Under the pieces are notes generated by a model. It had not been told where the DNA came from and made no database searches. It was given only the letters and a program-made list of their open reading frames with translations. A program made the translations under genes and the position numbers. Positions 6,124 to 52,702 of a DNA stretch of 64,000 bases are shown in pieces. Source of the stretch: an uncultured Clostridia bacterium (GTDB lineage: Bacteria; Bacillota; Clostridia; Christensenellales; UBA1242); the NCBI GenBank assembly GCA_944384465.1, contig CALWTK010000001.1:20062-84061 (forward strand), read 5' to 3'. The first letter of the stretch is position 1. The number at the start of each line of letters is the position of its first letter.

Positions 6124-6675
6124 ACGCACCCCTTAACGACATTTTTTTACATTATTATTATAACACAAAGATTTATTAATTACTAATAAATTAAAAATAT
6201 TTTTTAAAATTTTTTAAGATTTTTTATGAACGAATTCACCCATATACAGCAAATTAAGTTTTGTGATTAATAGAAAATTAAATAAAATTGCATAAATGAA
6301 TAAAGAGCCAACCATCTTTTATGATAATAAATAAAAAACACTGAAATTATGGTAAATTTACTAATAATTTTATTATAAAAATAGAAGGATATAACTCTTT
6401 ATTTTTTTGTAAATTTACTATAAGTTTATACTTATAAAATACACTAAAATAAAACTCCTTAATTAAATAAATAATGAGTACATCAATATAATATTACCGA
6501 TATATAATCTATAGCGATATATAACATATAGCAATTAAAGATTATAAATGTAAATAGAATATTTAAACAATTAAATAAATTGTTTTAATTGTCTTTGAAT
6601 GTTAAAGTTAAAAAAATGATAAAAATTCAAAATTTATAAAAAAATTTGCACCTGCGTATCCCTGACATAAAATAA

Positions 6676-6704
6676 TTGACTTCCCCATAAGCTTATAGTA
6701 TAAT
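6676..6704 (+). promoter_or_regulatory. sigma-A promoter of Zn-peptidase gene
   Basis: TTGACT-17 nt-TATAAT. Confidence 0.75.
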
Positions 6705-6727
6705 CAATTCAAAATAATGGAGAAAAA

Positions 6728-35080: not shown

Positions 35081-35110
35081 AAAAATCCGTAAATGAATAC
35101 GGATTTTTTT
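35081..35110. terminator. Bidirectional terminator between tRNA-Arg and virB4
   Basis: AAAAATCCGTA-aatgaa-TACGGATTTTT. Confidence 0.8.
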
Positions 35111-37853
35111 ATCTGCTTCTGCCTTCTCCCATGATTTCGCGGACATTATCAAACGCAATGATGTTGATAAACGAACGATCCATAGGTCCAGTGATGAAGA
35201 AGGCAGTACCACGCGGTGCGGTGACGATACCTTCTTGTTCTCTAGCATTAATACCACCTGCAGATTTGTATAGTTCCAACAAGTCTGCCATATCGTTAGG
35301 TGCCAACTGCAAAATCATACTGTACTGACAGGCGTTAATAATAGCTGCCGACCTACGTTGAATCTCAGGCGTTCCCAAGAAGTCTTTGATGTTCTGTGTA
35401 ATGACTATCTGCATACCCTGATATTTACGGATACGTTTAGCCATCTCTGCCATAAAGTTAAGTGCCACCGGACTGTCTGGGTCAATGAACATGTGTGCTT
35501 CGTCGACCGCAATGACAACCTGACGTTTGATATCCTTTCCTGTCCTTTGATAATATTGTTCGTTAAAACGCTTGTTGTTGATGATCTCGTTGTTGAGATA
35601 TTTGAATACCAACAACATCTGAGCATTCGCAAGTTTATTGTTTTTACTAGCAAACAGTGTCTGAAAGTTGAAGGTAATCAAGTTTTCATCTGTCAAAATG
35701 GACGTTGGTCCATTCCACAAGTCAGAGTTTCTACCACCAGTTGCGAACTTCTGAATGTATGTTTCCAAAATCAAAAGGTTGTTTCTATAAAATGCGTCTT
35801 TTACAGTTTTCAATTTCTTTTTAATCAAAGCGAATAAGTCATCAAATATAGGATAATCTTCCGCTTTTAGTTTACCGATATTTGTTTTTTCATTGATGCC
35901 CTTTTTGTTGTACAACTCAACGACCAAAGTATTCAAAGTTTCGAAAGCATCCGAACTGATGCCCTCTAAAATAGCTCTAAAGAATTGCTCCAAGAACTGC
36001 AAGTGAGTAAAGAAAGTCTTGTTGCTCCCCTTGTCCACCAGTTCATCAATACTCTTGTTGTCGATATCTTCCTCATCTTCCGTTGCCGCGTCCAAATCTT
36101 CCAGCGCCGCCATGATGTGGAACGGATTAAGGATACCAGATTTGTTGGTACCGACGTCGATCACTTTACCGCCAAGATTCTTCGTCATGACATCATATTC
36201 TTGTTCTGGGTCGAGGATAAACATTTTCGTTCTGTCTGCTGCCAGATTAGTCAAAATCGCTTTGGTAGCATAAGATTTACCCGAGCCAGATTTACCTATG
36301 ACCATCATGTTTGAATTGATACGACCTTTTCTAGAGTCCCTAGTAAAGAAATCTATAAACACTGGATAGCCGCTAGCTGTAGATTCACCGATACAGAAAC
36401 CTGCTGGGTCCTGCATTATGGAGTCAACCATTGGGAATGATGCCGCAATGGTGGTAGACGGCATGCTCCTATAAAAGTGCTTCAACGTATCAATCCTGTT
36501 CACACTTGACGACACAAAGGCATCGACCTGTCTACCAAAAAGGTCAGAATATTTAAACCCATATTGTTTCAATACATTCCTAACTTCTTTCCTGTTGCTC
36601 TCTTCTACTCTCAAGTGGATAGAGATATCGTAGAGTTGCTCGTTGTTTGTCTTCAAATCTCTCAGTAAAGTTTGCAAGGATTCAATATCCGCTTCTTTTT
36701 CAATAACTTCACTGGAACGGAAGGTTTTATCCAACTTAGACTCTTTTTCCATCACCGCACGGTCAATAGTCTTTTCACCCTTTTCTTTATCCACCGGCAT
36801 TATGTTCATGATGACACGTGTGCCTTCTTGGTTAAATATAGGATAAGCCCAACCATTTCCAACTTCGAGCGGATAATTAGAAATTACCATTTGCTTATAC
36901 GGACGTTTGTCTATCTCTACACGACCGACTTTGAACTCAATCTTTTCTGGCATGATCCAGTTGTTGACCTGACTAGGAGCGAGCCCCTCGATCTCTCTTT
37001 CATAAAATGTGGATTGATAATTAGATTTCAAGAAACTTATCAAATCATTTTCCATCAAGATCTCTGCGCTGATGGTGTATTGCCCAGTGCCAAGGTCGTT
37101 GACAATACCGATAGCAGTATCTTCAAGACTAGCTTTGTCGTTCCCATAGAGGACGAGATAGAAGTGATTTTGCAATATAGGTTCAGCTTTGATAGCATTA
37201 TTCAGTCTGTCCACACGCTCTCTGAAGATGAGCGAACGCGCATCCATTTCCGCCATAGTGTAATGCCCTGATTCATACAGTTCATTCAAAAGGCTATATT
37301 TTTCATCATCATTTTTCAAGAATATGTCAAAACGCATTGGTTTAACAGTCTTGACAATGCTCGCCCTTTGATATTGCGAGATACGCTTCAATGCTTTGCT
37401 GAACGTCCTAATCAACGAGTCTTGCGCCGGCTCTTGCATCAAGTCCATAGCGACAGGATGCATCTCAATCACTATACCAGAATAATCACCAAAATTGACA
37501 AATTTCCCCACCTCAATGTTGAAGAATGGTGTCAATTTTTCCATAGGCTTGTAGCCACGTTTTTTGTTGTTTTTGATATATTTTTTAGGGAAGGCGGCAA
37601 AACGAATAATTAAGATAATAGAACTATATAGCCTCAACCCTTCATCGATAGGAAGATAGAAGACGAGACTGATCGCCAGCCACCCCACAAGAGCATACCA
37701 GCGATAGTCCACACCGCCAATTTTAAATAAGTTACTAGCGACAATAACGATGGCAAAAACCAAACATACAATCGCTAGAATAATGTCTCCGAAAGTAATA
37801 TTTTTAAAGAATTCAGTTTTGACCCTAGTTTTACCAGGAATATATCTAATCAT
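35109..37853 (-). CDS. virB4: VirB4-like T4SS ATPase with fused N-terminal PrgI/VirB3-like membrane domain
   Basis: NSNMMVIGKSGSGKS (Walker A), ILDPEQEY, LNPF, AVDEAH (Walker B), KRIRKY..ITQN. N-terminal IPGKTRVKTEFFKNITFGD plus 2 TMs. Confidence 0.9.
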   Translation of the reverse strand: MIRYIPGKTRVKTEFFKNITFGDIILAIVCLVFAIVIVASNLFKIGGVDYRWYALVGWLAISLVFYLPIDEGLRLYSSIILIIRFAAFPKKYIKNNKKRGYKPMEKLTPFFNIEVGKFVNFGDYSGIVIEMHPVAMDLMQEPAQDSLIRTFSKALKRISQYQRASIVKTVKPMRFDIFLKNDDEKYSLLNELYESGHYTMAEMDARSLIFRERVDRLNNAIKAEPILQNHFYLVLYGNDKASLEDTAIGIVNDLGTGQYTISAEILMENDLISFLKSNYQSTFYEREIEGLAPSQVNNWIMPEKIEFKVGRVEIDKRPYKQMVISNYPLEVGNGWAYPIFNQEGTRVIMNIMPVDKEKGEKTIDRAVMEKESKLDKTFRSSEVIEKEADIESLQTLLRDLKTNNEQLYDISIHLRVEESNRKEVRNVLKQYGFKYSDLFGRQVDAFVSSSVNRIDTLKHFYRSMPSTTIAASFPMVDSIMQDPAGFCIGESTASGYPVFIDFFTRDSRKGRINSNMMVIGKSGSGKSYATKAILTNLAADRTKMFILDPEQEYDVMTKNLGGKVIDVGTNKSGILNPFHIMAALEDLDAATEDEEDIDNKSIDELVDKGSNKTFFTHLQFLEQFFRAILEGISSDAFETLNTLVVELYNKKGINEKTNIGKLKAEDYPIFDDLFALIKKKLKTVKDAFYRNNLLILETYIQKFATGGRNSDLWNGPTSILTDENLITFNFQTLFASKNNKLANAQMLLVFKYLNNEIINNKRFNEQYYQRTGKDIKRQVVIAVDEAHMFIDPDSPVALNFMAEMAKRIRKYQGMQIVITQNIKDFLGTPEIQRRSAAIINACQYSMILQLAPNDMADLLELYKSAGGINAREQEGIVTAPRGTAFFITGPMDRSFINIIAFDNVREIMGEGRSR

Positions 37854-37912
37854 TTTACCCCTTTATTTTTTTACAATTCACATGCATAATATAGTATCTA
37901 TTTTTTTCGGAT

Positions 37913-40156
37913 TTATTTTTTGTCCTTTTTGTTTGCAGCAGTATTAGCTGCCACTTTCTTAATTCCATCAGCAGTAGATAGCTGAGCATTTGCACTCTTG
38001 TTCGTGCTCTCTTTGATATTTGTCAGTAGGTTGACAATTTGAGTAGACATATTAAGTGTTGATGTGTCTGATGTGCTAATAGCCGTGCTGAGTTCTTCCA
38101 TGATAGGTCCCATGCTATCCTGAATCGCAGCAGCAAGTGCGTCATTGTTTGTTGAACCACCTAAGTCTTTGAACGCTGAACTCAATCCTGATTTAAGTGC
38201 GTCAACCTCCGCTTTCTTATCAATAGCAGAATTGAGTCTATACATTGTATCTCTTTCTTCTTGCGATTTCGCTGCACCTATTTGTTCACTAGTGTATTTT
38301 ACACCATGTTGAAGCCTATCTTTATCCTCTGTACTGAATATGTCTGTCCAATTACCTTTGTCATCTTTTGTCTTCGTTAATCCTTGAAGTTCAGCCACTT
38401 TAGCGTTGAAATCATCAAATTTTTTCCCAATATCGCCAACTTTATCAAAATCAGCTTGTACATCTCCACCTTTCGTCTTGCCGTATCCTGCTACCACATT
38501 ATTTGCAGCCTCTACCGCTACCCTTCTTGCTTCTTTTTGTTCGTCGGTCGCACTATCACCCAGTTCAGCTACTAGCGCATCACCATTCAAACTTCTCACA
38601 GCATTTTCGGTAGCTGCATTAACCGCTTCTTCTCCATACACTCCTTTAGCCCTTTCGACATCAGTGTCATTTTGATGCCCTTTCATTTGACTGCTCTTTT
38701 TCATCATCTCTGCTTCTTTGATTAATCTTTCACGTCTTCTTTCTGCTCCTGTTTTAGCCTCATATTTAGGATCCCAATCTTTCCTACTTTTTTCATATGC
38801 CTTTCCAGCAGCTCCTCTAAGTCCCAATCCCCAGCCTTTTGAAGCTTCGTTGAGTTGCGATGCTAGGTTGCCTGCAGTGCCACCCAAAAACCCTTTGAAG
38901 AAAGCTCCCTTTCTGCTTGAACCTCTTTCTCTAGCATTTTTGTATGCTCCAATCCCTGCGCCAAACGCTCCGCCAGCCACGCCAGCCACTTTTTGAGCAC
39001 CTTTCCTAAACTGGCCGAGTCTACCTTTGACTGATTGCGCCAACCCGGTATCGAATCCTGTTTCACCACCTATAAAGGAATTGATTAACGAGATTAAATC
39101 TTTTACCACATACAGACCCGCTATTGTCAGTAGCAAAGGTATGATACCTAATAAATCAACCACTCCCGGAATTGTAATATTTTGAATCAATGGTGAAACG
39201 CAGAAGAACAAGTTCATAGCTGCCACTGCAGAAAAAGCATTTAAAAATTGTTTGATGAACGAATCTTTCCAAGACTTCACCTTCTGTCCATCATCCAGTG
39301 GATACATCGCACACACTGCTGGGCTGATGATAAACAATATCAAAAGCATAAATATACGCTTAACCATCATGAACGAAATATTAACTAATATGTATAGGAT
39401 AAATATACCGCCACCGACAAGCAATATATAGTTTATATCAGTCAATGAATAATACGAGCCTACACTCCACCATGAATGTATCTCTGGACCATTGTCCAGC
39501 GAATAGACCTCGTCTATCTTACTAGCATAGTACTCTAAGTCAGTACTGCCATTGGGGTCGGATGGTAGATCGACACTCACACCATACTGAGCACAAAAAG
39601 CTTGTATCTCAGTGGCGGCTTCTTCCGTGATAGTATCGTACATATCACCAGACCTAATTTTGTTCGCATTATATGCTGAGGTGATGAACAGTTGCCGTGA
39701 TAGATTCATTGTATTAGTGGCAGATGTTGCACCATTTATCGCCACCAAGAGTATATTCCCTAGCCACACACCAAGCAGACAAAACACAGGAACAAGGAAG
39801 AAATTTGCCAAGCCTTTGATAGTTGAACTCAAAATAGCTTTCCACGATTTAGGTTGTTCTGCATAGACGTTTTTCAAAAATGCCATGACAGTAAATATAA
39901 TAATTAACACAAAAGCGAGAAGAATTATTGAATAAAATACATTTTTCACAATGTCTGAATTCAACAGATAAAATAACAGTCCATTATCATTTACATCACC
40001 TGTATTTCCCGAACCGATGTAAACCCCATTATACGCTACATCATCTATACCTGCAAAAGCAAAATAAATTGCTTGTAAAACATCTATAAGAACAAACACT
40101 ATACTAAATAATGGATATAATATCATCCCTATAACGCCCATTACAGCTTCGATCAT
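37913..40156 (-). CDS. VirB6/TrbL-like polytopic T4SS membrane protein with long soluble C-tail
   Basis: About 7 TMs with KRIFMLLILFIISP...PLDDG..KSWKDSFIKQF motif typical of Gram-positive/mollicute ICE VirB6-like proteins. Gly/Ala-rich tail. Adjacent to virB4. Confidence 0.75.
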   Translation of the reverse strand: MIEAVMGVIGMILYPLFSIVFVLIDVLQAIYFAFAGIDDVAYNGVYIGSGNTGDVNDNGLLFYLLNSDIVKNVFYSIILLAFVLIIIFTVMAFLKNVYAEQPKSWKAILSSTIKGLANFFLVPVFCLLGVWLGNILLVAINGATSATNTMNLSRQLFITSAYNANKIRSGDMYDTITEEAATEIQAFCAQYGVSVDLPSDPNGSTDLEYYASKIDEVYSLDNGPEIHSWWSVGSYYSLTDINYILLVGGGIFILYILVNISFMMVKRIFMLLILFIISPAVCAMYPLDDGQKVKSWKDSFIKQFLNAFSAVAAMNLFFCVSPLIQNITIPGVVDLLGIIPLLLTIAGLYVVKDLISLINSFIGGETGFDTGLAQSVKGRLGQFRKGAQKVAGVAGGAFGAGIGAYKNARERGSSRKGAFFKGFLGGTAGNLASQLNEASKGWGLGLRGAAGKAYEKSRKDWDPKYEAKTGAERRRERLIKEAEMMKKSSQMKGHQNDTDVERAKGVYGEEAVNAATENAVRSLNGDALVAELGDSATDEQKEARRVAVEAANNVVAGYGKTKGGDVQADFDKVGDIGKKFDDFNAKVAELQGLTKTKDDKGNWTDIFSTEDKDRLQHGVKYTSEQIGAAKSQEERDTMYRLNSAIDKKAEVDALKSGLSSAFKDLGGSTNNDALAAAIQDSMGPIMEELSTAISTSDTSTLNMSTQIVNLLTNIKESTNKSANAQLSTADGIKKVAANTAANKKDKK

Positions 40157-40320
40157 TAAACTTCTCCTTGTATCAAAAATATTTATTATTGATATTATAT
40201 ACTAAAATAATAAATTAATCAAACAAAACTTACAAAATTTTCAAATAATTTACCTGTAATAACTGTAAAGATTTAATAAATTAATTTATAAAATATCATT
40301 ACAAAAACAAAAAATAAAAA

Positions 40321-40351
40321 AATAGGATTAAATTAAATTTAACCCTATTTA
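40321..40351 (-). terminator. Terminator after acidic membrane protein gene
   Basis: AATAGGATTAAA...TTTAACCCTATT imperfect hairpin with A run on + strand. Confidence 0.5.
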
Positions 40352-40354
40352 TTA

Positions 40355-41848
40355 CTAACTCCAATCTGTCTCAAATTCTGCAAAATAGAACGGTTGTTCG
40401 CTTTCAAATCTGACTATCACTTCCCCGCCTTTCCAAGTAAGAATTTGATTTTCCGCATCATCTGTGGCCGTCTCTAAATAGATTGAATAATCCACGTCTT
40501 CCATCTGCAACAATTCATAGATTGACATACCTTGCGATAGCAAGTTTAAATTTCCAGTGTCAATATTTGTGAAAACAGGTGCTGACACGTTCAAATTTTG
40601 ACTAGATTCAAACATATAAGAATCTACTCCCACTTCGCTCTCAGTCGACCATACTGAACCAGTCAACACAATTTCACCATTTGTCCTAGAAATATACATA
40701 TTGAAATTATCAAAATCTATATCTGACAATATAAACGAATAATAATTAAAATACACATCAGTTTTAGGCATAAATATCATGGCAATATAGTTTTCTTTAG
40801 AAATATTTTCCATCATACTTTCGCTATCAGCAAAGATATAATCTTTTATATACACTTTTTCAGTTCTGATGTTGTGTTCTTCTTCAGACAATAATGAATT
40901 TATGCTGTCTACAATCACTTGTTCAATGGACGAGTCAATAGGTTCATCTTCATCAATAGGAGCATATTTGTCATTATCATTGATATATCCAGAAATAGTT
41001 TCCGCTATAGTAACTGACAAGTTTTTATCAAATCCAAAATATTTTATTGCAGCGATTTTCTCTTCAAAAGTGCTTTCCGTCATCCCCTCTGTCTGGTCAT
41101 AACTATACACATCGTCGACCATGAGACTAATCACATTATATAGATCTGCATATTCACTCGCAAAAGTAGTTTCATCAAAATTATCATAATTATATTCAGC
41201 ACTTGGCAGTTCTATAGTTATATCAAGATTTGCATTATTATCTTCCAGTAGTGTAACAGCCGCTTGTACGACCCCCGCATAATCTCTTATGATATCAATC
41301 TTTGCTTGGTCCTCATCCGTATAGACTACACGACAGCCATAAAAGTCTTCACCATTCACGCCAAATTGGGTAGACATACCTTCTCCGTCTCCCTGACTTA
41401 GCCAACTGAACATCAAGTCAAACACTGCCGCAATAGCAATTATAATTACAAACACTATTCCTACCTTGAATAATACACTACTCATAGAAGTACCGACAGA
41501 AGATCCCGTTTGCCTGACAACTGCTTTTTTATTCATAGCCAATTGCTCTATCTCTATGATATCTTTGGCATATTTCTTCTTCGCTTGCGCCATGACTCTT
41601 CTGTCACTAAAAGTTATGACAGGATAAATTGAACTAGCTACGCGCTTTTTGATTCCTTTCAATTTATTTTGCAGTATCTTATCTTTTGCCTCTTTCTCCG
41701 CCTTTGCTTCTTCTACAATTTCTTTTTCAGATTCTTCTTCATCTTCCGCCTCTTCTTCTTGAAGTAAGGCATCTTCATCGGCATCTTCTTCTAGGTCGTC
41801 ATCTTCTACATCTTCGTCATCATAGTCTTCTTCGTCATTATATGCCAT
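40355..41848 (-). CDS. Uncharacterised highly acidic single-pass membrane protein in T4SS cluster
   Basis: Poly-D/E N-terminus, one TM (~aa 125-150), acidic C-domain. AAGGAGG RBS. Confidence 0.7.
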   Translation of the reverse strand: MAYNDEEDYDDEDVEDDDLEEDADEDALLQEEEAEDEEESEKEIVEEAKAEKEAKDKILQNKLKGIKKRVASSIYPVITFSDRRVMAQAKKKYAKDIIEIEQLAMNKKAVVRQTGSSVGTSMSSVLFKVGIVFVIIIAIAAVFDLMFSWLSQGDGEGMSTQFGVNGEDFYGCRVVYTDEDQAKIDIIRDYAGVVQAAVTLLEDNNANLDITIELPSAEYNYDNFDETTFASEYADLYNVISLMVDDVYSYDQTEGMTESTFEEKIAAIKYFGFDKNLSVTIAETISGYINDNDKYAPIDEDEPIDSSIEQVIVDSINSLLSEEEHNIRTEKVYIKDYIFADSESMMENISKENYIAMIFMPKTDVYFNYYSFILSDIDFDNFNMYISRTNGEIVLTGSVWSTESEVGVDSYMFESSQNLNVSAPVFTNIDTGNLNLLSQGMSIYELLQMEDVDYSIYLETATDDAENQILTWKGGEVIVRFESEQPFYFAEFETDWS

Positions 41849-42133
41849 ACTTCCTCCTTTTATAGTGTTATTATAACAAAAATGGTATTATTTAACAAAC
41901 AAATTTACAAACTACTTTATTTTAGTTTCATTATTTGACTATCAATAATACGAGAAATATATAAAAAGATATAAAGATATTAAGATAGTATGGATTATTT
42001 TTATCTAATTATTTATCTAAAAGGCACCTCTTCAACGCGTGCCCCAACGCAAACGCTATTTCATTTTTACTCTAATTATTTAACGCTCGACAAACAATAT
42101 TGACATATTTAAATTAGCGAGCATGTTGTGAAC

Positions 42134-42158
42134 AAAAAATGAGAGCAAACGCTCTCAT
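42134..42158 (-). terminator. Terminator of pilin gene
   Basis: ATGAGAGC-aaac-GCTCTCAT with T run on minus strand. Confidence 0.8.
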
Positions 42159-42181
42159 CCTAAAAACACTATTAACTAATC

Positions 42182-42481
42182 TTACCACCAGCTATTTACA
42201 CCAGACATTATATCACTCATGTTGTAAGCCAAATAGTAGAACAATGCTATCAAAAGACCTGTTACCACGATACCCACGATAACATAGATCAATTTTTGTT
42301 TAGCTTCGTCACGTTCATTTTTCTCGTCCGCTTTAGCAAATTTGACACCTACAACAATAGCGTAGACGATACCAGCAACAGCGACCAAAATCAAAATAGG
42401 ATTGATGATATTAATTACAGCATTTAATATCGTTTCCAGCCAATCAATACCAGTTTTAAAATCTACTAATAATGTACTCAT
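42182..42481 (-). CDS. VirB2/TrbC-like pilin
   Basis: 99 aa, two TM helices joined by KFAKADEKNERDEAKQKL loop, the typical T4SS pilin pattern. Confidence 0.8.
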   Translation of the reverse strand: MSTLLVDFKTGIDWLETILNAVINIINPILILVAVAGIVYAIVVGVKFAKADEKNERDEAKQKLIYVIVGIVVTGLLIALFYYLAYNMSDIMSGVNSWW

Positions 42482-43139
42482 AAAACCCCCTGTTACATAA
42501 AATTCATTTTAAGTAATACTAAAATTAAATTAGAATAAATACCATAAAACAATATTTTATGCTAATTTATGACATAATAATAGCAAGTTAAAAATATAAA
42601 ATCAACTAATTTTAGATATAATTTAAAAATTTTTTTAACTTTTTTTAAATTACATTAAAACTATTTTCCACAATTATTGATAAATTATTCTTCCTTACAA
42701 TTTATTTTCATAAGACTTTAGAACAAATTTGAGCTATTAGCATATACCCCTGATAAAAATAACCATTGGCGATATCAATATTTTAATACAGATAGCATTC
42801 ATAAAATAATACAAGAATTTTTACACTCTGTTTATACCTTATTATTATAAATGAGATTTACTAACTATATGATTTTTTTATCACGTTAAACTAAAAGCTA
42901 TAGCACTAGACATAGATTGGTATTCTAAACATAAATTTGGTATTTTATTATTGAAACATTAAATACATTTAGTTATCTAAATTTACATACTGCTATTCAC
43001 AAGTAAAAACATTTCCAAGTTTTGTGTATGTGTATATGTGAAGGTATAAGGTACACTTAACTTATATTATTATTTACAATGTTAGTATAACAATATAATA
43101 AGTATTATCTACAAAGCCGTCCATTATTTTAAAATTTGC

Positions 43140-43168
43140 TTGACGGGTAAAAGAAAATTGTATATTAT
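43140..43168 (+). promoter_or_regulatory. sigma-A promoter of virD4
   Basis: TTGACG-17 nt-TATTAT, GAGGT RBS downstream. Confidence 0.65.
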
Positions 43169-43188
43169 TATATCTAGAGGTATTATTG

Positions 43189-45207
43189 ATGAAGAAATTA
43201 GGCAAAAAAATTATTCTTTATATAGTTGTAGCGGCATTAGTTTTCGCTGCAGCGGTAATTATCATAACCTATGTAAAAGATGGCAGATTTGTATTCAATG
43301 CTAGATACATTGGCGACGCTATCCCATTTGTCTTGCTAGCGCTAGGTGCCTTGCTAGTTTATGATCTATTGCGTACGGCAGACGGCAAAAATAAATCCAG
43401 TAGAGACGGCAAGGCAATCGATAAGGTGACAGACTCCAGCGGTAAAGAGACATCCGAGTTCTTCAATAAGGATTTTGTCACAGACGAGGATCTAAAAAAG
43501 ATCAAAGCGTTCAACTACAACACCTTATCCACCATTCGCTCCTCCAAAAAGGATGGCATTTTGGTCCGAGCAGAAGCAAAGGGCTCAAACATGGATATAA
43601 ATTTTGTAGAACCTATTCATACTCTTGTAGTCGGTACCACATCATCAGGTAAAACATCTCGTTTCGTTGTTCCATCCTTGCAACTCATGAGTATGACCAG
43701 CGCAAAGCCGTCTTTCGTTATCACCGACCCGAAGGGCGAATTGTACGAAAAATGCTCACACAAGTTTACGAGTGAAGGCTATGATGTTAAGATCATCAAT
43801 CTACGTGACCCATTCACTTCTACGCAATGGAACCCATTGACTTATCCATTTGATATATACACTAGAAGCTACAATCTAGAAAAAGAAGTGAAAGTTCATC
43901 CTCCAGGAGACAACCCTAGAAGATATAATTTAATGTTGCAAAGAGAATTTGATTATACAACGACTACATGGTTCGAATTCAACAATACCGCATATGTAGA
44001 CAAGTCCTTTATGGAAAGCGATATGCGCGTAAAAGCAAAAGACTTACAAGACCAAACTTACAACACACTAAAAGACATCTGCACTACATTGGCACCTGTT
44101 GAAAGTGCAAAAGAGCCAAGTTGGGAACAAACTGCACAGAGATTGATTCACGCCGTTATGCTCGCCATGCTAGAAGATAGTCGTATCCCAGAACTTGGCA
44201 TGACTAGAGATAAATACAATCTATACAATGTTTACAAGATATGTAACTTGACTGACTCTGGTCGAAATACGTATGCGACACTGACAAAATACTTATTTGA
44301 TTATAGAGATAAATTTAGTAAAGTCGGAGACTTAGCTTCTACTGCACTGAAAAATGCTGAAGGGACTTCGAAAAACTATATGGGCTTCGTTTCTAGCAAG
44401 ACAGCAATGTTTAGCGATACAGGTATCAGCTTGCTTACCAGCCGTTCTGAAATTGACTTTACCTACATTGATGAGAAACCTACAGTTATCTTCTTAATCA
44501 TTCCAGATGAAATCAGAACGAGATATCCTTTAGCTATTTTGTTCGTAACCCAATTGTACAAACGTCTTGTTGAAAAAGCGCAAAGTATTGGCGGTAGACT
44601 GAAACGAAATGTTTACTTCATGCTAGATGAATTCGGTAATATGCCAAAATTCCCAGAATTTGGCTCATCTATGGCGGTAGGTCGTTCACGTGGTATATTC
44701 TTTGAACTGTGCGTACAATCATATAGTCAGTTGTATCAAGTCTATGGTCAAGATGAAGGTAAAATCATCAAAGACAACTGCCCTATCCAAGTATATATTG
44801 CTTCGGAAGATACAGTCACGAACAAAGAATTTAGCGAACTATTGGGTAAAAAGACCATTGCTAAAGTCAGTGAAAACAAAAGTAAAGGACCAGACGGCAA
44901 AGAGACCACTTCTTCTAGCAAACAGGTGTTATCCAGACCTATTGCTTATCCTGAAGAATTGATGACATTCAGGGACCAAGACAAAGTTGTGATCAAGACC
45001 TTTCAACCAAACGCTGCATTGAAAACAACTATGACCATGTACTTCAAAGCACCAAAAATCTATGACACCACACGTCAATTTGGCAGTTATATTCAAAGTA
45101 GACTTTTTGATGAAGACAAAGTATTCTACGACATCAAACAACGTAACAGCATTATGTCTACTCTAAACGACAATGATGATGACGATGATGACGATGACTT
45201 ATTCTAA
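43189..45207 (+). CDS. virD4: VirD4/TraG-like type IV coupling protein
   Basis: Two N-terminal TMs, HTLVVGTTSSGKT, ITDPKGEL, WNPL, FMLDEFGN, GRSRGI..VQSYSQL..YG, poly-Asp C-tail. Confidence 0.92.
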   Translation: MKKLGKKIILYIVVAALVFAAAVIIITYVKDGRFVFNARYIGDAIPFVLLALGALLVYDLLRTADGKNKSSRDGKAIDKVTDSSGKETSEFFNKDFVTDEDLKKIKAFNYNTLSTIRSSKKDGILVRAEAKGSNMDINFVEPIHTLVVGTTSSGKTSRFVVPSLQLMSMTSAKPSFVITDPKGELYEKCSHKFTSEGYDVKIINLRDPFTSTQWNPLTYPFDIYTRSYNLEKEVKVHPPGDNPRRYNLMLQREFDYTTTTWFEFNNTAYVDKSFMESDMRVKAKDLQDQTYNTLKDICTTLAPVESAKEPSWEQTAQRLIHAVMLAMLEDSRIPELGMTRDKYNLYNVYKICNLTDSGRNTYATLTKYLFDYRDKFSKVGDLASTALKNAEGTSKNYMGFVSSKTAMFSDTGISLLTSRSEIDFTYIDEKPTVIFLIIPDEIRTRYPLAILFVTQLYKRLVEKAQSIGGRLKRNVYFMLDEFGNMPKFPEFGSSMAVGRSRGIFFELCVQSYSQLYQVYGQDEGKIIKDNCPIQVYIASEDTVTNKEFSELLGKKTIAKVSENKSKGPDGKETTSSSKQVLSRPIAYPEELMTFRDQDKVVIKTFQPNAALKTTMTMYFKAPKIYDTTRQFGSYIQSRLFDEDKVFYDIKQRNSIMSTLNDNDDDDDDDDLF

Positions 45208-45967: not shown

Positions 45968-46559
45968 TTAGTTTGGCTTTATGTTTACATAATAGACAAA
46001 ATAAATTTGAAGATAAAACTTTGAAAAAACAATAGAACCCTTTAAATCTTGTTCATATAAGTTTTGTAATGGTTCAGCAAAGAAACAATCATTAAATGTT
46101 TGATAAGTGGTTTTAATATTATCTATCATTTCTCTGCGAGTTCTAACTTTAGAAATAAGTAAAGCATCAAAATAACTTAATTTATCTTCATCTAAAAATT
46201 CAGGTGTTCCAAAAGCTTTCTTTACTAACCCTTTTGTTTTTGCTGATGGTTTAAGTTCTCTAATAATATCTAAAACCTCTTCACGAGCATTGAGTATTGC
46301 AGGAACATCTATTTTTTTTCCAATCGAACTCAAAGAAAACAACATCAACCAATTCTTTCAATTGATGTGCAGTAATATCTTTATCAATCTCTATATATTT
46401 TTTGACAAATTTTTTACGTAGTTCCTGTAATTTTTCTAATCTATTATTGTTTAATTCAGGGTTGTTTCTTATTTTTAAAACTTCACTTTTATATTGTTTA
46501 ATATAGTTTTGTCTTAAAATAAAACTCTCTTTGATTTGAAATGTTATTCCTGCTGGCAT
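45968..46559 (-). pseudogene. Hypothetical protein split by +1 frameshift in A8 tract
   Basis: 46281..46559 (RBS AAGGAG) and 45968..46348 fuse to FEFDWKKIDVPAILNAREE if the T8 run at 46312-46319 is T7. Confidence 0.7.
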
Positions 46560-46626
46560 AATATTCTCCTTAATTTAAAGGTATCTCAATTTATAAAAAT
46601 TGTCAAATGTATATAAAAATCTTGTT

Positions 46627-47286
46627 TTATATAGTTATTGCCTGTTCTTGTTTTAATTCTTCAACTGCTTTTGGGTAATGGTCTAAACAAAATTGATAAT
46701 AAGGACTATTAGGGTTTTGACTATAACCTTTTATTAAATATTTTTGATGTTTTAAAATTCTATCAAATTCTTTTTCACCATAATCTTTATAATAGAATAA
46801 ATGCAGTAAATTATTTTTTTGAAATTCTTTCATTAGTTCATAAATGTTTTCAACCTCATAACATTTTAAAAGTTTAACAGGATTTCCTGTGCCATCAACA
46901 ACTTCTGCTGAATAAGATGTTTGGTTTTCTTCAAAATGTGAACTTTTTTGGTCTACAATATAAATATAACATTTTTCGTTATCAAATACTTTTTTTAAAG
47001 CATCTTCATACGCCTCATAAAAAAATATTTCACCATTATTATTCATTAAACCATATTGCCCATCTAAATTACCGAGATGTTTTTTACTACCATAGAATAA
47101 AACTGAATTAAGATGATATGATGCAAAAACACAGGGTTGAGTTCCTTTTTTATATGCCCAAGATTTATTTGGTTTTAATTCAGTTAAATTACCTATTGGA
47201 GAACAATGAAACAAAATCTTTTTATCTCTTATATTAGTTAATATCTTATCTTTAAACTTTTCAAAATCAAATTTTTCAACTTTCAT
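46627..47286 (-). CDS. Hypothetical protein, possible ADP-ribosyltransferase-like fold
   Basis: LFHCSPIGNLTELKP...VFAS...LFY..YIYIV pattern. TTGACA-17-TATTAT lies 6 nt before ATG 47286. Confidence 0.6.
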   Translation of the reverse strand: MKVEKFDFEKFKDKILTNIRDKKILFHCSPIGNLTELKPNKSWAYKKGTQPCVFASYHLNSVLFYGSKKHLGNLDGQYGLMNNNGEIFFYEAYEDALKKVFDNEKCYIYIVDQKSSHFEENQTSYSAEVVDGTGNPVKLLKCYEVENIYELMKEFQKNNLLHLFYYKDYGEKEFDRILKHQKYLIKGYSQNPNSPYYQFCLDHYPKAVEELKQEQAITI

Positions 47287-47384
47287 ATAAAAATAATACA
47301 ATAGTTATTTAATTTTGTCAAATTAAAACTTTTATAAATTTAGATACAAAAACAAATAAAATATGTTATACTAAAATTGTAAGT

Positions 47385-47843
47385 ATGAAAAATGTTAATT
47401 ATAAATTAAAAAATGTGAGTTCACAAGACAAACAACTATACTATGATATTAAGAAATTAACTTGTGAAAAGTATGTAAAAAAGTATTTTGGTGGTTAGAA
47501 CAAACAAGAACAAATAACTTATAACGATAAAATTTTTGATGAAAGTTTAGAGCAAACTTATTTTAAGTCAATAGTTGTAAACAATAAAGTTGTTGGTTTT
47601 TTCGGTTATCAAATATTTGATAAAGAAATCGGTTGTGTAACTTTGCAAATTATACGTATGAAAGGTAGGTCGAAAATCTTTGCCGATTTGCTATCTCATC
47701 TAACTAATTTGTCAAATGAATTAAAGTTACCAATTTATGCTAAATCGTTTTTAGATAGTAAAGATATTAGAATTTATCAAAATGCTGGTTTTAAAATTAT
47801 GGAAATCACAAAATCACATTATCTTTTAAAAAGAGAAAATTAA
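47385..47843 (+). pseudogene. GNAT acetyltransferase with internal amber stop
   Basis: In-frame ATG 47385 ... YFGG*NKQEQ (TAG 47496-47498, probably from TGG) ... VVGFF ... RIYQNAGF. Confidence 0.75.
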
Positions 47844-47853
47844 GGGGTGTAAT

Positions 47854-48024
47854 ATGCAAAAGAAAGATTATGAAACATTTGTAAAAGACAAATTTAAAGG
47901 TAAAACCAAAAATTTAATGTTAAGTCAAATTAAAAATTTTTATGAGATTGCAGAACAAAGTTTTAAAAATAAAAAATATAAACTTGGTGATGATGCTATA
48001 TCATTAATACAAATCAATCGATAG
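47854..48024 (+). pseudogene. Truncated gene fragment (56 aa)
   Basis: AAGGGG RBS, MQKKDYETFVKDKF..., ends abruptly before the toxin-like cassette. Confidence 0.4.
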
Positions 48025-48112
48025 TATTTTGTCAGCTTTTGGATTTAATCAATACGTTTTATTATATTTTATATAAAAGTACTTTTAATATTTAAAGGAG
48101 TTATGATATAAT

Positions 48113-48751
48113 ATGCGTATTCTGGACGAATATACTGATTTAATTAATGCCAGTTTTAGTCAATGGATTAAAGTGGAAGATAATCAATCTAAATGGACAA
48201 TAGAAGATTTCCCATACTCAACTGGAGTTGATGAAAATATTACTTATCCTCACTGTTGGAAATGTGTGACAGTAAATCATTGTTGGTTCAAAAACGAAGA
48301 GAACAAAAAACCGAACCGATTCGACTATTCAAACACTTCATTTTCTCAAACACCATTGAGCAAACGAGGATTATATCATCCGCATTGCCACTGCAAAGAA
48401 TTAGCAATAAACAATCCAAAAATTGATGATATTGAATTAATCATCCCAGATAATAAAGAGTTATATACAATTAATAAAAAATCATCATGGATTAATGCAA
48501 TGGGATATGATAATTATAACAATTTTTTTAAAATTCTCTATATGAAAACAAAAGAAAATTTTTCAAAAGGTAATTACCTTATTAGAGAACATTTTCAATA
48601 TGGTGTACAAATTAATATAAATGTAGCTATGCCCGGCGCTAATGAAAAAATCAATAATATTTATCCACTTAAAACGGCTTATACTATATTCCCTAATGGG
48701 AAATTAAAACTAAATACTCATTTAGGAGGATATCAAGATGAAAGAATATGA
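48113..48751 (+). CDS. Putative toxin: MuF-type Cys/His motif + DUF6883-like C-terminal domain
   Basis: HCWKC...CWF...GLYHPHCHC, then MGY...GNY...YG...TAYTIFPNGKLKLNTHLGG. Homologous to 49846..50442. Confidence 0.6.
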   Translation: MRILDEYTDLINASFSQWIKVEDNQSKWTIEDFPYSTGVDENITYPHCWKCVTVNHCWFKNEENKKPNRFDYSNTSFSQTPLSKRGLYHPHCHCKELAINNPKIDDIELIIPDNKELYTINKKSSWINAMGYDNYNNFFKILYMKTKENFSKGNYLIREHFQYGVQININVAMPGANEKINNIYPLKTAYTIFPNGKLKLNTHLGGYQDERI

Positions 48752-49121
48752 TGAAGTTAAGGTTATCAATAATAATAAATATTACAACGATAAAGGGGTC
48801 TACGCTGGTATGGTTGGCACGATTATTCAGCCAGAAATTAGAGACAATTGCTTTTTAATTTGTTTTATCGACCCTAAATTTAAAGACCCAACATTCGACC
48901 TATCTTCTGATGAAAATATGAAATCTCTTAAAAATGATATTATTTTAGATATTAAAATTTCAGACTTGGAATTCGTTGAAGACGGAAAATGTTCTGATGA
49001 AGATATATTAAACGAATTACCCAAAAACAATCCAAAATGGTGGTGCAAAGTTGAAAATGGATATATTGTAAACTTGCTTGGTGAAAAGAAAAATAAAATC
49101 CCTTTCGACTATGATTCTTAA
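48738..49121 (+). CDS. Putative immunity protein, DUF4926-like
   Basis: MKEYDEVKVI....YYNDKGVYAGMVGTII, overlaps the toxin 3' end by 14 nt, AGGAGG RBS. Confidence 0.6.
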   Translation: MKEYDEVKVINNNKYYNDKGVYAGMVGTIIQPEIRDNCFLICFIDPKFKDPTFDLSSDENMKSLKNDIILDIKISDLEFVEDGKCSDEDILNELPKNNPKWWCKVENGYIVNLLGEKKNKIPFDYDS

Positions 49122-49321
49122 TAATCCAAAATGTTTATTTGTTATTTATTGAACATAATTTTTTATAAAAAATATAAATTTAAATGGAAGTTGCAATTCA
49201 AGTTGCTGAAAAATTTGGAGTTCCATTATTACGACCAGATTTGACAGCTATCACAGGAATTAATTTATCAATGTAACATTTAGCTCACTCTATCTTCATC
49301 CCAAAGTTTTCTAACCTCAAT

Positions 49322-49356
49322 AAAAAAACAAGCCTAGTAATGGGCTTATTTTTTAT
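49322..49356. terminator. Bidirectional terminator between the convergent cassettes
   Basis: AAAAAAACAAGCCT-agtaat-GGGCTTATTTTTT. Confidence 0.65.
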
Positions 49357-49849
49357 TTTCATCGACCAATTTTAGATCATAAATGTTAACACTTATTATA
49401 TCTCCGTACAACTCTCCATTTTCGTCGACTCCAGTAAAATCAACCAACATTTCGCTATTTATCATATCGTCTAAAGCAATAACTCCTCTATCTCCACAAT
49501 GGACACCTTGCCTTGCATATTTTTCTTTTTCTACTATCACTTCAACCCAATCACACTCTTTAAATTTAGGTTTTGTTAATACTCTAGACTTATCTAAATT
49601 CAAGTTTTCTTCAATATATTTATCAAATTCAATTATTATGTTTTTTGGCAATTCTATATCTTCTTTTTTTATTGTTTTATTATTTACTGTGCAGATCGTC
49701 GATTCTCCCACATTGTCATCATTGAAGAAAATAACTTCGCTAGAATCAAGATTAGAAGAAAGAATAATACCATGAAAATCTAATTGTAAATTTAATTTTA
49801 TCATCTCATCGGTTAATTCAACTATTTTTACTATTTGATACTTTTTCAT
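49346..49849 (-). CDS. Putative immunity protein with two DUF4926-like repeats
   Basis: MKKYQIVKI..LQLDFHGII and FKECDWVEVIVEKEKYARQGVHCGDRGVI. ATGA coupling to upstream toxin gene. Confidence 0.65.
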   Translation of the reverse strand: MKKYQIVKIVELTDEMIKLNLQLDFHGIILSSNLDSSEVIFFNDDNVGESTICTVNNKTIKKEDIELPKNIIIEFDKYIEENLNLDKSRVLTKPKFKECDWVEVIVEKEKYARQGVHCGDRGVIALDDMINSEMLVDFTGVDENGELYGDIISVNIYDLKLVDENKK

Positions 49850-50442
49850 TTTATTCTTCCTCCAAATGGCGTTGTATTTTGAAGTCCTCCTTCGGGATAA
49901 AGCATCCAACCAGAATAAAAACTTTTCCCATTATCTAAAGTTATAGGTATTGCCAATCGCTGTCCATACTCATCTAACTTCTTTAGTTTATAATTTCCTC
50001 GCAAATAATTTTCTTTTGCCTGTAAACAATATAATTCTATTAGTTTTTTAATATCTTTGATTGAATATCCCCAAGATTCAAATAATTCTTTTTTACCATG
50101 AGAACTTTCGCCGAATATGTATTTATAAAATTTATCTACAGAACATTTTGCATTGATTTTTTGTCTAACTTTTGAAAATTCTACATTTAGTATTCTACAA
50201 TCACATTTTGGATGTAGAAGCCCATCTGTATTTGGCACTTCATTTCTTGGCATATTCCATTTTACAAAATAACAACCATCTAAAACAGAACATTTTAAAC
50301 AATGACTCCTTTTAGCCTATATACCACGTATTAATTTCCTAAACCAATTATTTTTATTAGGAACCATAAAATGCCACCATTCAATCCATGTATTATCAAC
50401 AACCCATCCATCAATTTCACTAAAATTATCAAAGACTCACAT
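49846..50442 (-). pseudogene. Second MuF-motif + DUF6883-like toxin gene, inactivated by two nonsense codons
   Basis: GAGGT RBS, ATG 50442, TGA 50437-39, TAG 50317-19, then HCLKCSVLDGCYF...LLHPKCDC...DKFYKYIF...HGKKELFESWGY...YSGWMLYPEG. Confidence 0.75.
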
Positions 50443-50873
50443 ATTAACCTCACCATGAGTTTAACATGATAATACAAAAATACATTTTTAATGTGTCATT
50501 AAAGTAATAGTATTATATCAAAAATCTTCTATATTTTCAACTAAAATTAATTTCTATCTTTTTTTACAAAGTCGATAGACTATTAAGCATAATTACAAAA
50601 AACATCACTGTAATCTTTCTTTTAAATGGGTTTTTCATTAAATATGAAAAAATTTAGTTTGGTATTACGCAAAAAAAACGAATTGTAATGGTGTTCGCTT
50701 TTTCATTTTAATTATTTATTAAAATTTGGAATATGTTTTACTTCTTTTGATATTTTTTACACATCTATCCCGTCTTCCAGGGAATATCTTACTTTAAATT
50801 TAATTCTTTTTTATATTTTGAATTTACTTTCTCGTATTTTAATCTCATTACTTTCTTGTCTTTTCTGGGCTCT

Positions 50874-51416
50874 CTATTTTAAAATATATTCTTCTTTTAT
50901 GTTCCCTTCATACACTTTACTATGTTTCGACTTTGTTATCAATCTACCACTCATGCAGTGTCTAGCACATTTTTCTCCAATTGGGCTGACGCAATCCATT
51001 ATTATGCTATCAATGTTCACTTTCAATCTTTTCAATTTTTTTATAAAGCCCTTCCACAAAATTATCAGCACTGCTCCTTGGTGATATTCCGGATGAATAA
51101 CTATTGATGTAAATAGACATTTTTGTTTAGTGTCTGGATCAAAATCCAATATATCATTTGTCTCAATATCGTAATCTTTCTTTTGCCCATTTTTTATTAA
51201 CTTATAGCATTCGTCAGTCACTGGCATAAAATTGATATATCCTATCACTTGATTGTCGCATAATACGATTGTATAAATATTAGAATTAATCTTTAGCCAC
51301 TCTTTACATTTTTGATATTCGCCTACATCTTGCCCCTTGTACACCAACTTGTCCAATTCAATCATACTCATAAGCAATTTATTTGTAACTCTATTCACTA
51401 TTTTAAATTGTTTCAT
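50874..51416 (-). CDS. GNAT-fold protein
   Basis: VIGYINFMP, LFTSIVIHPEYHQG, DCVSPIG. Confidence 0.7.
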   Translation of the reverse strand: MKQFKIVNRVTNKLLMSMIELDKLVYKGQDVGEYQKCKEWLKINSNIYTIVLCDNQVIGYINFMPVTDECYKLIKNGQKKDYDIETNDILDFDPDTKQKCLFTSIVIHPEYHQGAVLIILWKGFIKKLKRLKVNIDSIIMDCVSPIGEKCARHCMSGRLITKSKHSKVYEGNIKEEYILK

Positions 51417-51520
51417 AATTTTATTATACCACAACTAAATTTTTAAGTAAATATTTATATAAAAATTTCTAAAATTAAATTCATGATCACGAAATAAGCA
51501 ATGTAATATTTCATAATAAA

Positions 51521-52702
51521 CTATGCATTTAGCCTAGGCATTTTTATATCAATAGACTCCAAGTTTTTAAATTCCGTCTCAAAAATTTGTTTTAGTTCTT
51601 TAAAATCTTCTTCGTTAATTTTACATTTTTCCAAAACAAAATTTACATAATCATTGCATCGACAAATGTTCTGTATTTCATTGTTTAGAGATTTGATCCT
51701 AAAATCATTTAAATTAGCCTTCACATCTTCTCTTTCTAGCGCCTTTTCTATAAAGTTTAAAAACTTTTTGATTCCATTTACCAGTGCGTGGACACATTCT
51801 TTCAAATCAATCCCTTCTTTTTTGTTGTCATTAAAATAATGTATGATTTCATATAATGGTATAGATATATCTACTATATCCACATTTAAACAATCTTTAT
51901 CAAATCCAGCATTCTTAGTATCTCCCGTGAAATACGCAACAGAAAAAGCATTGTTATACAAACTATTGAGAGCAAATATGATATTTACGAACGGCCCATA
52001 AGACCAAGGGATATTATAAGGCTTGATTTCCCCTGTGGACAAATGCAGATATTGCAAGTCCTGAAATTCTTTATCGAGCAAGACATTGTGTGCAATAAAT
52101 TCTGTCATCGCTTCATATAGCCAATCTTTGCTTATGTTCAAACCTTGTATTACCTTTTTCCCATGGACCTCATTTCTATTTGTGATCAGTCCGCCATACG
52201 CTTTGTAATATATGTAATCTTCCTTTGCAACATCTTCTTTCGTCAGTGCGACATAATCTTTCTTTCCTTCATCATATTTTAGAAATTCTAGATAACTCAT
52301 AGCATGCGTCAATTCATGCAAAAACACGACAATATTTCTAGCGGCTTCTCGCTTGTAGTTATCCACCTCATTCCCTGTCAAATTGCTAGGAATCTCATTT
52401 TTTAAAAAGGCAGTATCTATATTTGGTAAAAGTTTCAGTTCATAATATAATGTAAATTTCTTTACATCTAAATCATCAATCAACATACCAGCATGACCCA
52501 GTTCTCCTATTCCAATCGGTTCGACTGAAAAATCTTTTATGAGTAGTAAATTGTCTATACACCCTTTATCTACAGGGAAACGTCTACACAAGACTTTTAT
52601 ATATTTTTGTACAATTTCATCCAAAAAACCAGAAACATTTTTGATTTTGTCTCTCAATGCACTATTGTTATACTTTTCTAAAAACAATTCTACTTTTTTC
52701 AT
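51521..52702 (-). CDS. Hypothetical zinc metalloprotease (gluzincin-like)
   Basis: FLHELTHA (HExxH) and downstream LYEAMTE. Confidence 0.6.
   Translation of the reverse strand: MKKVELFLEKYNNSALRDKIKNVSGFLDEIVQKYIKVLCRRFPVDKGCIDNLLLIKDFSVEPIGIGELGHAGMLIDDLDVKKFTLYYELKLLPNIDTAFLKNEIPSNLTGNEVDNYKREAARNIVVFLHELTHAMSYLEFLKYDEGKKDYVALTKEDVAKEDYIYYKAYGGLITNRNEVHGKKVIQGLNISKDWLYEAMTEFIAHNVLLDKEFQDLQYLHLSTGEIKPYNIPWSYGPFVNIIFALNSLYNNAFSVAYFTGDTKNAGFDKDCLNVDIVDISIPLYEIIHYFNDNKKEGIDLKECVHALVNGIKKFLNFIEKALEREDVKANLNDFRIKSLNNEIQNICRCNDYVNFVLEKCKINEEDFKELKQIFETEFKNLESIDIKMPRLNA

Follow-up and report, generated by a model that had tools for sequence, protein, structure and literature searches.

A 64,000-nucleotide stretch of the genome of an uncultured Clostridia bacterium (Christensenellales, UBA1242; GCA_944384465.1, contig CALWTK010000001.1, positions 20,062 to 84,061), hereafter the window, carries two convergent two-gene cassettes, each consisting of a toxin-like gene of ~200 codons (A) overlapping a smaller downstream partner gene (B). 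We consider it likely that these cassettes represent a polymorphic RNase toxin/immunity module that descends from the MuF toxins of phages, has been cut down in size and is now mostly independent of phages, and in which the toxin genes decay while the immunity genes persist. The source genome, 1.07 Mb in 32 contigs, is 97.7% complete.

The first cassette lies on the forward strand and comprises the toxin gene A1 (48113-48751, +), an intact open reading frame (ORF) of 212 amino acids (aa), and the immunity gene B1 (48738-49121, +; ORF of 127 aa), which starts 14 nucleotides (nt) inside the end of A1, downstream of a GGAGG. The second, on the reverse strand, comprises A2, a toxin pseudogene of a sister subfamily running from an ATG at 50442 to a TGA at 49846-49848 (-), and the immunity gene B2, an intact ORF of 167 aa (49849 to 49346, -), with the stop codon of A2 and the start codon of B2 sharing the ATGA at 49846-49849. 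A1 and A2 are homologous across the Cys/His region and the C-terminal domain (BLASTP E 1e-10, 23% identity), and both carry the motif HCxKC..x..C(W/Y)F ... L(Y/L)HPxCxC, which reads HCWKCVTVNHCWF...GLYHPHCHC in A1 and HCLKCSVLDGCYF...GLLHPKCDC in A2. An earlier note on this DNA had described two homologous genes of ~200 aa with a common Cys/His motif, each translationally coupled to a partner gene, and that description holds. In an alignment of 30 A proteins, H47, C48, C51, C57, H89 and H93 are invariant and C92 occurs in at least 90% of the rows; C92 is invariant in a separate 22-row alignment of the family. A1 can be divided into an N-terminal Cys/His module, here called mini-MuF (residues ~1-105), and a putative RNase domain of the BECR fold, related to DUF6883 (residues ~106-212).

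The assignment of the C-terminal domain comes from comparisons at the level of the family. The A family comprises 130 proteins retained at E <= 0.001 from 199 candidates; they are mostly full length, nearly all of 200-220 aa and uniform (40-67% identity over the full length), and none carries a precomputed Pfam domain. An exhaustive phmmer search against 1.84 billion representatives returned 108 matches; 7 of the 15 distant matches that were scanned contain DUF6883, 4 of them above the Pfam cut-off, including an RHS-repeat protein of 904 aa that ends in the domain. The DUF6883 model itself (Pfam PF21814) does not match A1 or A2 and gives weak matches in 2 of 30 family members (best E 0.011). 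Aligned by hhalign against seven bona fide DUF6883 domains, the A family scored 99.0% (E 7e-18) over 89 columns, corresponding to A1 residues 122-208, so that the DUF6883-like C-terminal domain proposed in the earlier note is well supported. The AlphaFold2 (AF2) model of A1 has a mean predicted local distance difference test (pLDDT) value of 88.6 and a predicted template modelling score of 0.85, and in VIA its residues 105-209 best matched the CdiA-CT toxins 6vek_A (Z 7.5, root-mean-square deviation 3.3 over 91 residues), 6cp9_A (Z 6.8) and 6cp8_B (Z 6.2), followed by ParE, RelE, BrnT, YoeB, HigB and YafQ toxins; almost all of the top 31 rows are BECR-type toxins, with every Z below 8, a range attainable from a common arrangement alone. 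The top Foldseek rows for A1 in the PDB were likewise 6cp9 chains (E 0.12, probability 0.84). Candidate active-site residues are the conserved K123, H160 and T202, H160 being present in at least 90% of the close family and replaced in the sister subfamily. On profile evidence, the C-terminal domain of A is thus a divergent DUF6883/BECR-fold RNase domain, and A would act as an RNase. A recent preprint (bioRxiv 10.64898/2026.08.28.747851), in its accessible parts, assigns DUF6883 to 'BECR-Tox3' and describes a downstream DUF4926 gene as common and fusion to Phage_Mu_F as frequent for this toxin domain; fusions of PBECR domains to MuF and portal proteins are described in the accessible text of Iyer et al. 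(2017, PMC5512222).

The N-terminal module links the family to MuF. The MuF reference domains were drawn from 20 of 101 Clostridia-class genomes; with a more diverse A alignment, hhalign scored the match to them at 83.7% (E 8e-6) over 40 columns, placing A1 residues 44-98 on MuF columns 70-109, with CxxC on CxxC and HPxCHC on HPNCRC. MuF columns 1-69, the helical part with the RxxRTE region, have no counterpart in A by hhalign, and ~45 residues precede the motif in A1. The Pfam model of MuF (PF04233, Phage_Mu_F) finds neither A1 nor the read-through A2 even at E <= 10, and has no match anywhere in the source genome. The MuF-like motif of the earlier note therefore stands at profile level, over ~40 columns, but not at Pfam level. 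In BFVD, the whole A1 model best matched a 'minor capsid protein' of 473 aa (E 2.9e-4, probability 0.99, 256 columns). The fold of the N-terminal domain was compared within this whole-protein model, the domain folded alone being too poorly modelled for a search, and VIA barely tested residues 1-102. Short MuF pieces that Pfam does recognise are present in other small RNase proteins and support the MuF link. One locus (L055, 459-1650) encodes a 173-aa protein with PF04233 positions 65-111 (31.4 bits, above the cut-off) joined to PF00545 (Ribonuclease), followed by two Barstar genes, and another (L058, 424-2618) a 231-aa protein of the same build that lies after holin and amidase genes and before a Barstar-containing gene. 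In a third locus (L054), portal, MuF and DUF6883 are contained in one 765-aa frame. We regard it as moderately supported, by these profile alignments, that the N-terminal module of A is the counterpart of the C-terminal ~40 residues of MuF, a phage head protein; this Cys/His module probably binds zinc.

Of the partner proteins, B1 has 284 homologs of 112-128 aa, all without Pfam domains, in which a variable SH3-like N-terminal part is followed by a strongly conserved tail of ~35 residues, whereas 28 homologs were found for B2. B1 and B2 show no similarity by BLASTP, but their families align by hhalign at 95.5% (E 1.5e-8), with B2 residues 95-167 on B1 residues 3-89, that is, the C-terminal half of B2 is homologous to the N-terminal part of B1. 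The earlier note had called both partners DUF4926-like. Neither is matched by the Pfam model (PF16277), but matches below the threshold occur in 20 of 32 members of the B1 family (best E 3.3e-4), and against the single true DUF4926 protein found in 200 genomes the B1 family scored 30.9% by hhalign, in register, and the B2 family 3.2%; a 170-aa partner in one further genome (G289) reaches 24 bits to DUF4926. The likeness to DUF4926 is therefore weak, though plausible on these profile scores for the B1 family. The predicted A1-B1 complex reached an ipSAE of 0.85 (0.84-0.85 in three runs), compared with 0.01 for the best of three controls, the mark applied being one that 58 of 80 solved complexes and 2 of 110 mismatched pairs reach; contact agreement between the runs was at least 86% and the pLDDT of the partner at least 87. 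This prediction, one of the checks that the earlier note had proposed, supports binding of B1 to A1. The predicted interface comprises A1 residues 112-129, 158-166, 184-189 and 201-207; because it includes K123 and T202 and flanks H160, B1 is modelled on the presumed active face of A1, where it would neutralise the toxin.

Relatives of A were found in 33 loci, 32 of them in genomes and one on a viral contig, and a B1-type gene directly follows A in all 33, two of these B genes being cut by contig ends. For the survey of neighbouring genes, 502 ORFs were clustered and 170 representatives picked, of which 150 were scanned with Pfam; the 20 left out came from the syntenic loci L006-L008 and L032 (14) or were short (6). 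The only clusters common to more than five loci were A itself (33 loci) and B (31 loci). The genome loci supplied 142 of the scanned neighbours, and these are either housekeeping genes or unrelated ones, among them rpoB, L10/L12, tRNA synthetases, PNPase, pyruvate kinase, SmpB and transketolase; Pfam detected no portal, terminase, capsid or MuF gene in this set, and housekeeping neighbours are present in all 28 non-syntenic genome loci. Most loci are thus without phage genes, in line with the stand-alone family envisaged in the earlier note. Within the taxonomic order of the window, matches were found in 16 of 151 genomes, belonging to 12 of 96 genera, a patchy distribution in which several copies have internal stops.

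Comparison of the loci indicates that the C-terminal domain is exchanged together with the immunity gene. A1 and the toxin of L032 are 95% identical over residues 1-100 and 38% identical over residues 101-212, and for the toxin of L007 the N- and C-domain identities are 88% and 38%, respectively. The nt match of A1 to L032 ends at 48450, and contigs of other strains, obtained from two sequencing runs, share A1 up to 48436 and diverge beyond, so the breakpoint between the two domains lies near 48436-48450. The ortholog of B1 in L032 is not the first B gene but the second, an orphan (84% nt identity); this pattern is the signature of a new C-domain and immunity gene displacing an older one. Across 23 intact pairs, mean identity is 54% for the N-domain, 38% for the C-domain and 55% for B; the identities of the N- and C-domains do not correlate (Spearman 0.11), and the identity of B tracks the C-domain (Mantel r 0.73, P-value 2e-4) more than the N-domain (r 0.38), significance in this test being overstated for want of independence among related loci. 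L007, L013, L025, L032 and L038 contain additional B copies, and L010 and L016 arrays with A fragments. Measured by the polymorphic-toxin criteria of Zhang et al. (2012), the family has a conserved N-terminal part with exchanged C-domains, immunity genes directly downstream, and additional B copies or fragments of A in seven loci; as to a trafficking domain, the mini-MuF piece is present, with no packaging genes at the locus and one phage example (L038). The proposal of a polymorphic family is thereby substantiated by the conserved N-domain, by C-domain swapping with a sharp breakpoint and by the occurrence of immunity genes as orphans.

Loss of the toxin with retention of the immunity gene, noted earlier for the second cassette, proved to be general in the family. 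A2 contains the two nonsense codons previously marked at 50437 and 50317, namely a TGA at 50439-50437 (codon 2) and a TAG at 50319-50317 (codon 42), while its partner B2 is intact. Read through with X at these positions, A2 is colinear with an intact relative of 198 aa (39% identity, E 9e-40) and is hence a pseudogene of a full-length gene; as its beginning, M-stop-VFDNF, matches the N-terminal consensus of the family, the ATG at 50442 is the ancestral start. An independent check was provided by contigs from three DNA runs belonging to three other studies, all of bird or animal gut metagenomes: the TGA is present in all three and the TAG in two, the third having TTG (Leu) in its place, which indicates that the TAG lesion is young and still polymorphic. 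This comparison uses contigs and not raw reads, and is accordingly blind to transcript ends and expression levels and gives no meaning to uncovered stretches. An alternative genetic code with TGA read as Trp, prompted by the TGA at codon 2 and the AT-rich small genome, was considered and rejected in favour of the standard code, because translation table 11 yields long ORFs (one of 3652 aa), the second lesion is a TAG and one strain has TTG. A third cassette of the same genome (contig C23) has an A gene broken by a frameshift and in-frame stops, followed by an intact B1-type B of 129 aa, so that the genome retains one intact toxin gene out of three and all three partner genes. Among the 33 loci, A is disrupted in eight, by in-frame stops in L006, L016, L028 and L031 and by frameshifts in L008, L020, L034 and L036, the latter being possible errors of metagenome assembly, the former harder to dismiss. 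The 47 B matches include 44 of full length without stops, two cut by contig ends and one with a stop (an orphan in L023). The difference between disrupted A (8/33) and disrupted adjacent B (0/31) corresponds to a Fisher P-value of 0.005, or 0.001 when the source genome is added (10/36 versus 0/34), figures which overstate the significance for the same reason as the Mantel test.

These data bear on two alternatives. The cassettes could be inert debris of a decayed prophage without present function, as might be thought from the two broken A copies out of three in the source genome and from the location of the locus in an island of low GC content (0.24-0.28). This is extremely improbable given 130 A-type homologs, mostly full length, 284 B-type homologs, the 44 uninterrupted B genes among 47 and the 97% identity of cassette 1 across species between flanks of 65-78%. 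Contigs from an RNA library span 48181-48505 (A1) and 49391-49969 (B2 with the last part of A2); this also speaks against debris, but hints only weakly at expression, as DNA can occur in such libraries. Alternatively, the pair could be an intracellular type II toxin-antitoxin or abortive-infection module, in which A is never exported and is held by B until freed on stress or phage attack. Its two-gene build and a C-domain with the BECR fold of RelE, ParE, YoeB and HigB (Z 3-5.7) are those of RelE/ParE systems, A has no evident secretion signal and the pair stands alone amid housekeeping genes in the 28 non-syntenic loci. We nevertheless find it unlikely: a type II antitoxin has a DNA-binding domain and is usually encoded ahead of its toxin, whereas here A precedes B and Pfam detected no DNA-binding family in B1, B2 or 32 B homologs; PADLOC gave no match; swapping of C-domains and arrays of orphan immunity genes are typical of polymorphic toxins; the same C-domain family also ends RHS proteins and portal-MuF fusions; and the antitoxin of a dead toxin should decay, whereas no adjacent B gene is disrupted in the 31 loci. 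A ToxN-type (type III toxin-antitoxin) gene was observed in L012 (5866-6393) ~4 kb upstream of the A-B pair, which hints that some copies sit in small islands of conflict genes.

The cassette also appears to move between species. Cassette 1 is contained in an exchanged segment (47991-49139) with 97.2% nt identity to L006 and 91% to L008, whereas its flanks (the genes for a coupling protein, a VirB4-like protein and CobW) are 65-78% identical to those of the relatives; the points at which other strains' contigs break off are 47991/47993 and 48436. The toxin copy of L006 (10001-10636) is 99.5% identical to A1 at the protein level and has an in-frame stop at codon 140. With a near-identical toxin already stopped and flanks so divergent, recent transfer followed by quick inactivation is indicated.

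One flank of the cassettes contains genes resembling a type IV secretion system (T4SS), the other genes for a U32 peptidase and CobW. A coupling-protein gene (43186-45207, +; Pfam T4SS-DNA_transf, E 7.9e-49) lies 2.9 kb upstream of A1, and a VirB4/TraG-type P-loop ATPase gene at 35109-37853 (-; Pfam P-loop_TraG, E 4.5e-17); the stretch between their outer ends (35109-45207) also contains two genes of unknown kind (747 and 497 aa). A could accordingly be an effector of this neighbouring system, given that the arrangement recurs in L006, L007, L008 and L032 and that PBECR domains are reported on elements with a T4SS-like apparatus in the accessible text of Iyer et al. (2017, PMC5512222). We hold this to be very unlikely, as the coupling protein and VirB4 of the window were found by tblastn in just those 4 syntenic loci of 33, and no T4SS family occurs among the 142 neighbours of the other genome loci except for one TraX match. 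Moreover, the T4SS-like genes are 73-78% identical at the nt level in four related species, the same as the housekeeping flanks, while the cassette is 97% identical, which means that they do not form a single mobile unit with it. Judged by this divergence, the T4SS-like genes look like a long-resident feature of a reduced-genome lineage and not a recent conjugative element.

This viral contig, L038, is the one place where the family meets phage genes. A P22-type portal gene (4656-6527) is followed by A (6514-7170), which overlaps its end, and by three B genes (7167-8264), after which come a scaffold-like gene, the major head protein gene and further virion and lysis genes. A position directly after a portal gene is thus seen in 1 of the 33 family loci and not in the window, so that the description of the cassettes as phage-free is right for most loci but not for this contig. 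The source genome has no PF04860 or PF03354 match. Its contig C10 (locus L066, 5206-13127) contains a phage head module with Terminase_6N, a P22-type portal, a scaffold-like gene and a major head protein gene, the last three being 52%, 28% and 61% identical, respectively, to their counterparts in L038; here the scaffold-like gene directly follows the portal gene, with no A or B in between. This phage lineage therefore lacks a MuF gene of its own, and its portal-proximal slot can hold the A-B cassette as an optional insert.

Several known systems resemble the module in part. The MuF polymorphic toxins of temperate phages, as characterised in the accessible parts of Jamet et al. (2017, PMC5576092) and Zhang et al. 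(2012, PMC3482391), are alike in that an N-terminus derived from MuF is combined with a variable toxin domain at the C-terminus and a small immunity ORF directly downstream, and the L038 member likewise follows a portal gene; theirs, however, is a full MuF domain in prophage head modules, whereas in the A family MuF is recognisable over its last ~40 positions only, in a protein of ~200 aa with housekeeping neighbours in 28 of 28 non-syntenic genome loci. The portal/MuF-PBECR fusions and the BECR-Tox3 toxins with DUF4926 (PMC5512222; bioRxiv 10.64898/2026.08.28.747851, as far as their accessible text describes them) share the toxin domain family and, as far as the weak likeness to DUF4926 goes, the type of downstream partner; the proteins described here differ in falling below every Pfam threshold, in an N-terminal part cut to the Cys/His motif and in additions to the partners, namely a conserved tail of 35 aa (B1) or a tandem domain (B2). 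The barnase-type proteins of L055 and L058 have the same build, with ~50 aa of the MuF C-terminus, an RNase of the BECR superfamily and one or two immunity genes, but belong to different RNase and immunity families, have a MuF piece that Pfam recognises and, in L058, stand beside holin and endolysin genes; as a lead only, an Atlas cluster of 279 members contains PF00545 in 93% and PF04233 in 65%. The CdiA-CT BECR toxins of E. coli 3006 and K. pneumoniae 342 (6vek, 6cp8, 6cp9), which we take to be tRNases, are the best structural matches to the C-domain of A (90-98 residues) and are likewise paired with an immunity protein, but identity is only 13-20%, they are delivered as parts of giant filamentous proteins through type V secretion, and their immunity proteins are unrelated.

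Apart from the limits attached above to the Z-scores, the Mantel and Fisher figures and the frameshifts, a number of observations weigh against a MuF-derived toxin module. A1, A2, B1 and B2 have no usable direct match in Pfam, PHROGs, NCBIfam or PADLOC (direct scans of the genes next to the cassettes with the same collections were also without usable result). Foldseek found nothing in the PDB at E <= 0.001 for A1, and a profile search of PDB sequences gave chance-level matches only (E 2 and above). The likeness to MuF is limited to 40 columns, and with the profile of the close-family N-domain hhalign scored it at only 25.9%; the Atlas neighbours of the N-domain, all below the bar of that tool, are leads only. 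Neither a signal peptide nor a known secretion domain is evident in A when the sequence is read by eye. Searching 50,697 phage records with A1 by tblastn gave no match, and L038 is the only viral contig with the A family. Finally, the loading or secretion tag that the earlier note saw in the short motif is conjectural: the N-domain folded alone reached a pLDDT of 51.4, which speaks against a free-standing tag, whereas within the whole A1 model it is confident (blocks of pLDDT 86-95). The domain probably packs on the C-domain and may thus belong to the toxin as an integral part that cannot be detached as a tag.

The surroundings of the cassettes in the window differ from the rest in composition, with a GC content of 0.24-0.28 against 0.30-0.41 elsewhere. 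The low-GC stretch (46000-52000) also contains ORFs of 126, 92, 224, 186 and 393 aa without a family match, the largest of which (51521-52702) is also found beside the cassette in L006, L007 and L032, at 53-58% protein identity. A search for repeats or att-like sites bounding this island found short, weak repeats only. Between the convergent cassettes lies a terminator-like hairpin with a T run (49330 to 49347 or 49357, +), the one such site in the scanned region and weak alone, as shuffled sequences contain 0.9 on average. Upstream of A2/B2 is a promoter-like site (50512-50540, -; TTGAAA-17-TATAAT, 11 of 12 positions, with a TG extension), a hint at most, since such sites are no commoner than in shuffles of this AT-rich region (20 versus a mean of 25.3). 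At some distance (9093-20051, -), a single ORF of 3652 aa is very large for a 1.07-Mb genome.

In the mechanism that we propose, A would be a compact toxin of ~200 aa made up of an N-terminal Cys/His module and a C-terminal BECR-fold RNase domain of ~105 residues, and B its cognate immunity protein, produced by translational coupling and predicted to lie over the RNase face. The module would transfer between species as a unit, recombination at the junction of the two domains would bring in a new C-domain with its immunity gene, and the displaced immunity gene would persist as an orphan. Once in a host chromosome, toxin genes would often decay and immunity genes be kept, and this decay of toxins with retention of immunity suggests that the immunity genes are maintained as protection against toxins arriving from outside. 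As to delivery, the route we prefer, though less likely than not, has A loaded into the capsids of portal-type phages by means of the mini-MuF module. A more specific version, which we rate as unlikely, takes the ~100-aa Cys/His module as a minimal capsid-loading handle: a chromosomal toxin would be packed in trans into the heads of portal-type phages, whether resident or superinfecting, and injected with the phage DNA, and the chromosomal B genes, both orphans and partners of dead toxins, would form the host's immunity repertoire against phage-injected RNases. This version fits a MuF-less phage lineage with A and three B genes after the portal (L038), and it fits the source genome, in which the related head module is free of A and B, and three B genes and one live A gene are located elsewhere.

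The toxin domain, the type of partner and the link to MuF are already in print. New here is a cut-down form that keeps only the Cys/His end of MuF and escapes all family models; the accessible parts of the literature on MuF and BECR toxins contained no such truncated form, and no search was aimed at such forms. Also new is its occurrence as a mostly solitary two-gene module among the housekeeping genes of small-genome gut Clostridia and not in prophage head operons, with swapping of the C-domain and its immunity gene and decay of the toxin under retention of immunity. The two related phage head modules, with and without the cassette, form a natural pair that makes it testable which part of MuF loads cargo into the capsid and whether bacteria keep immunity against toxins delivered by phages.

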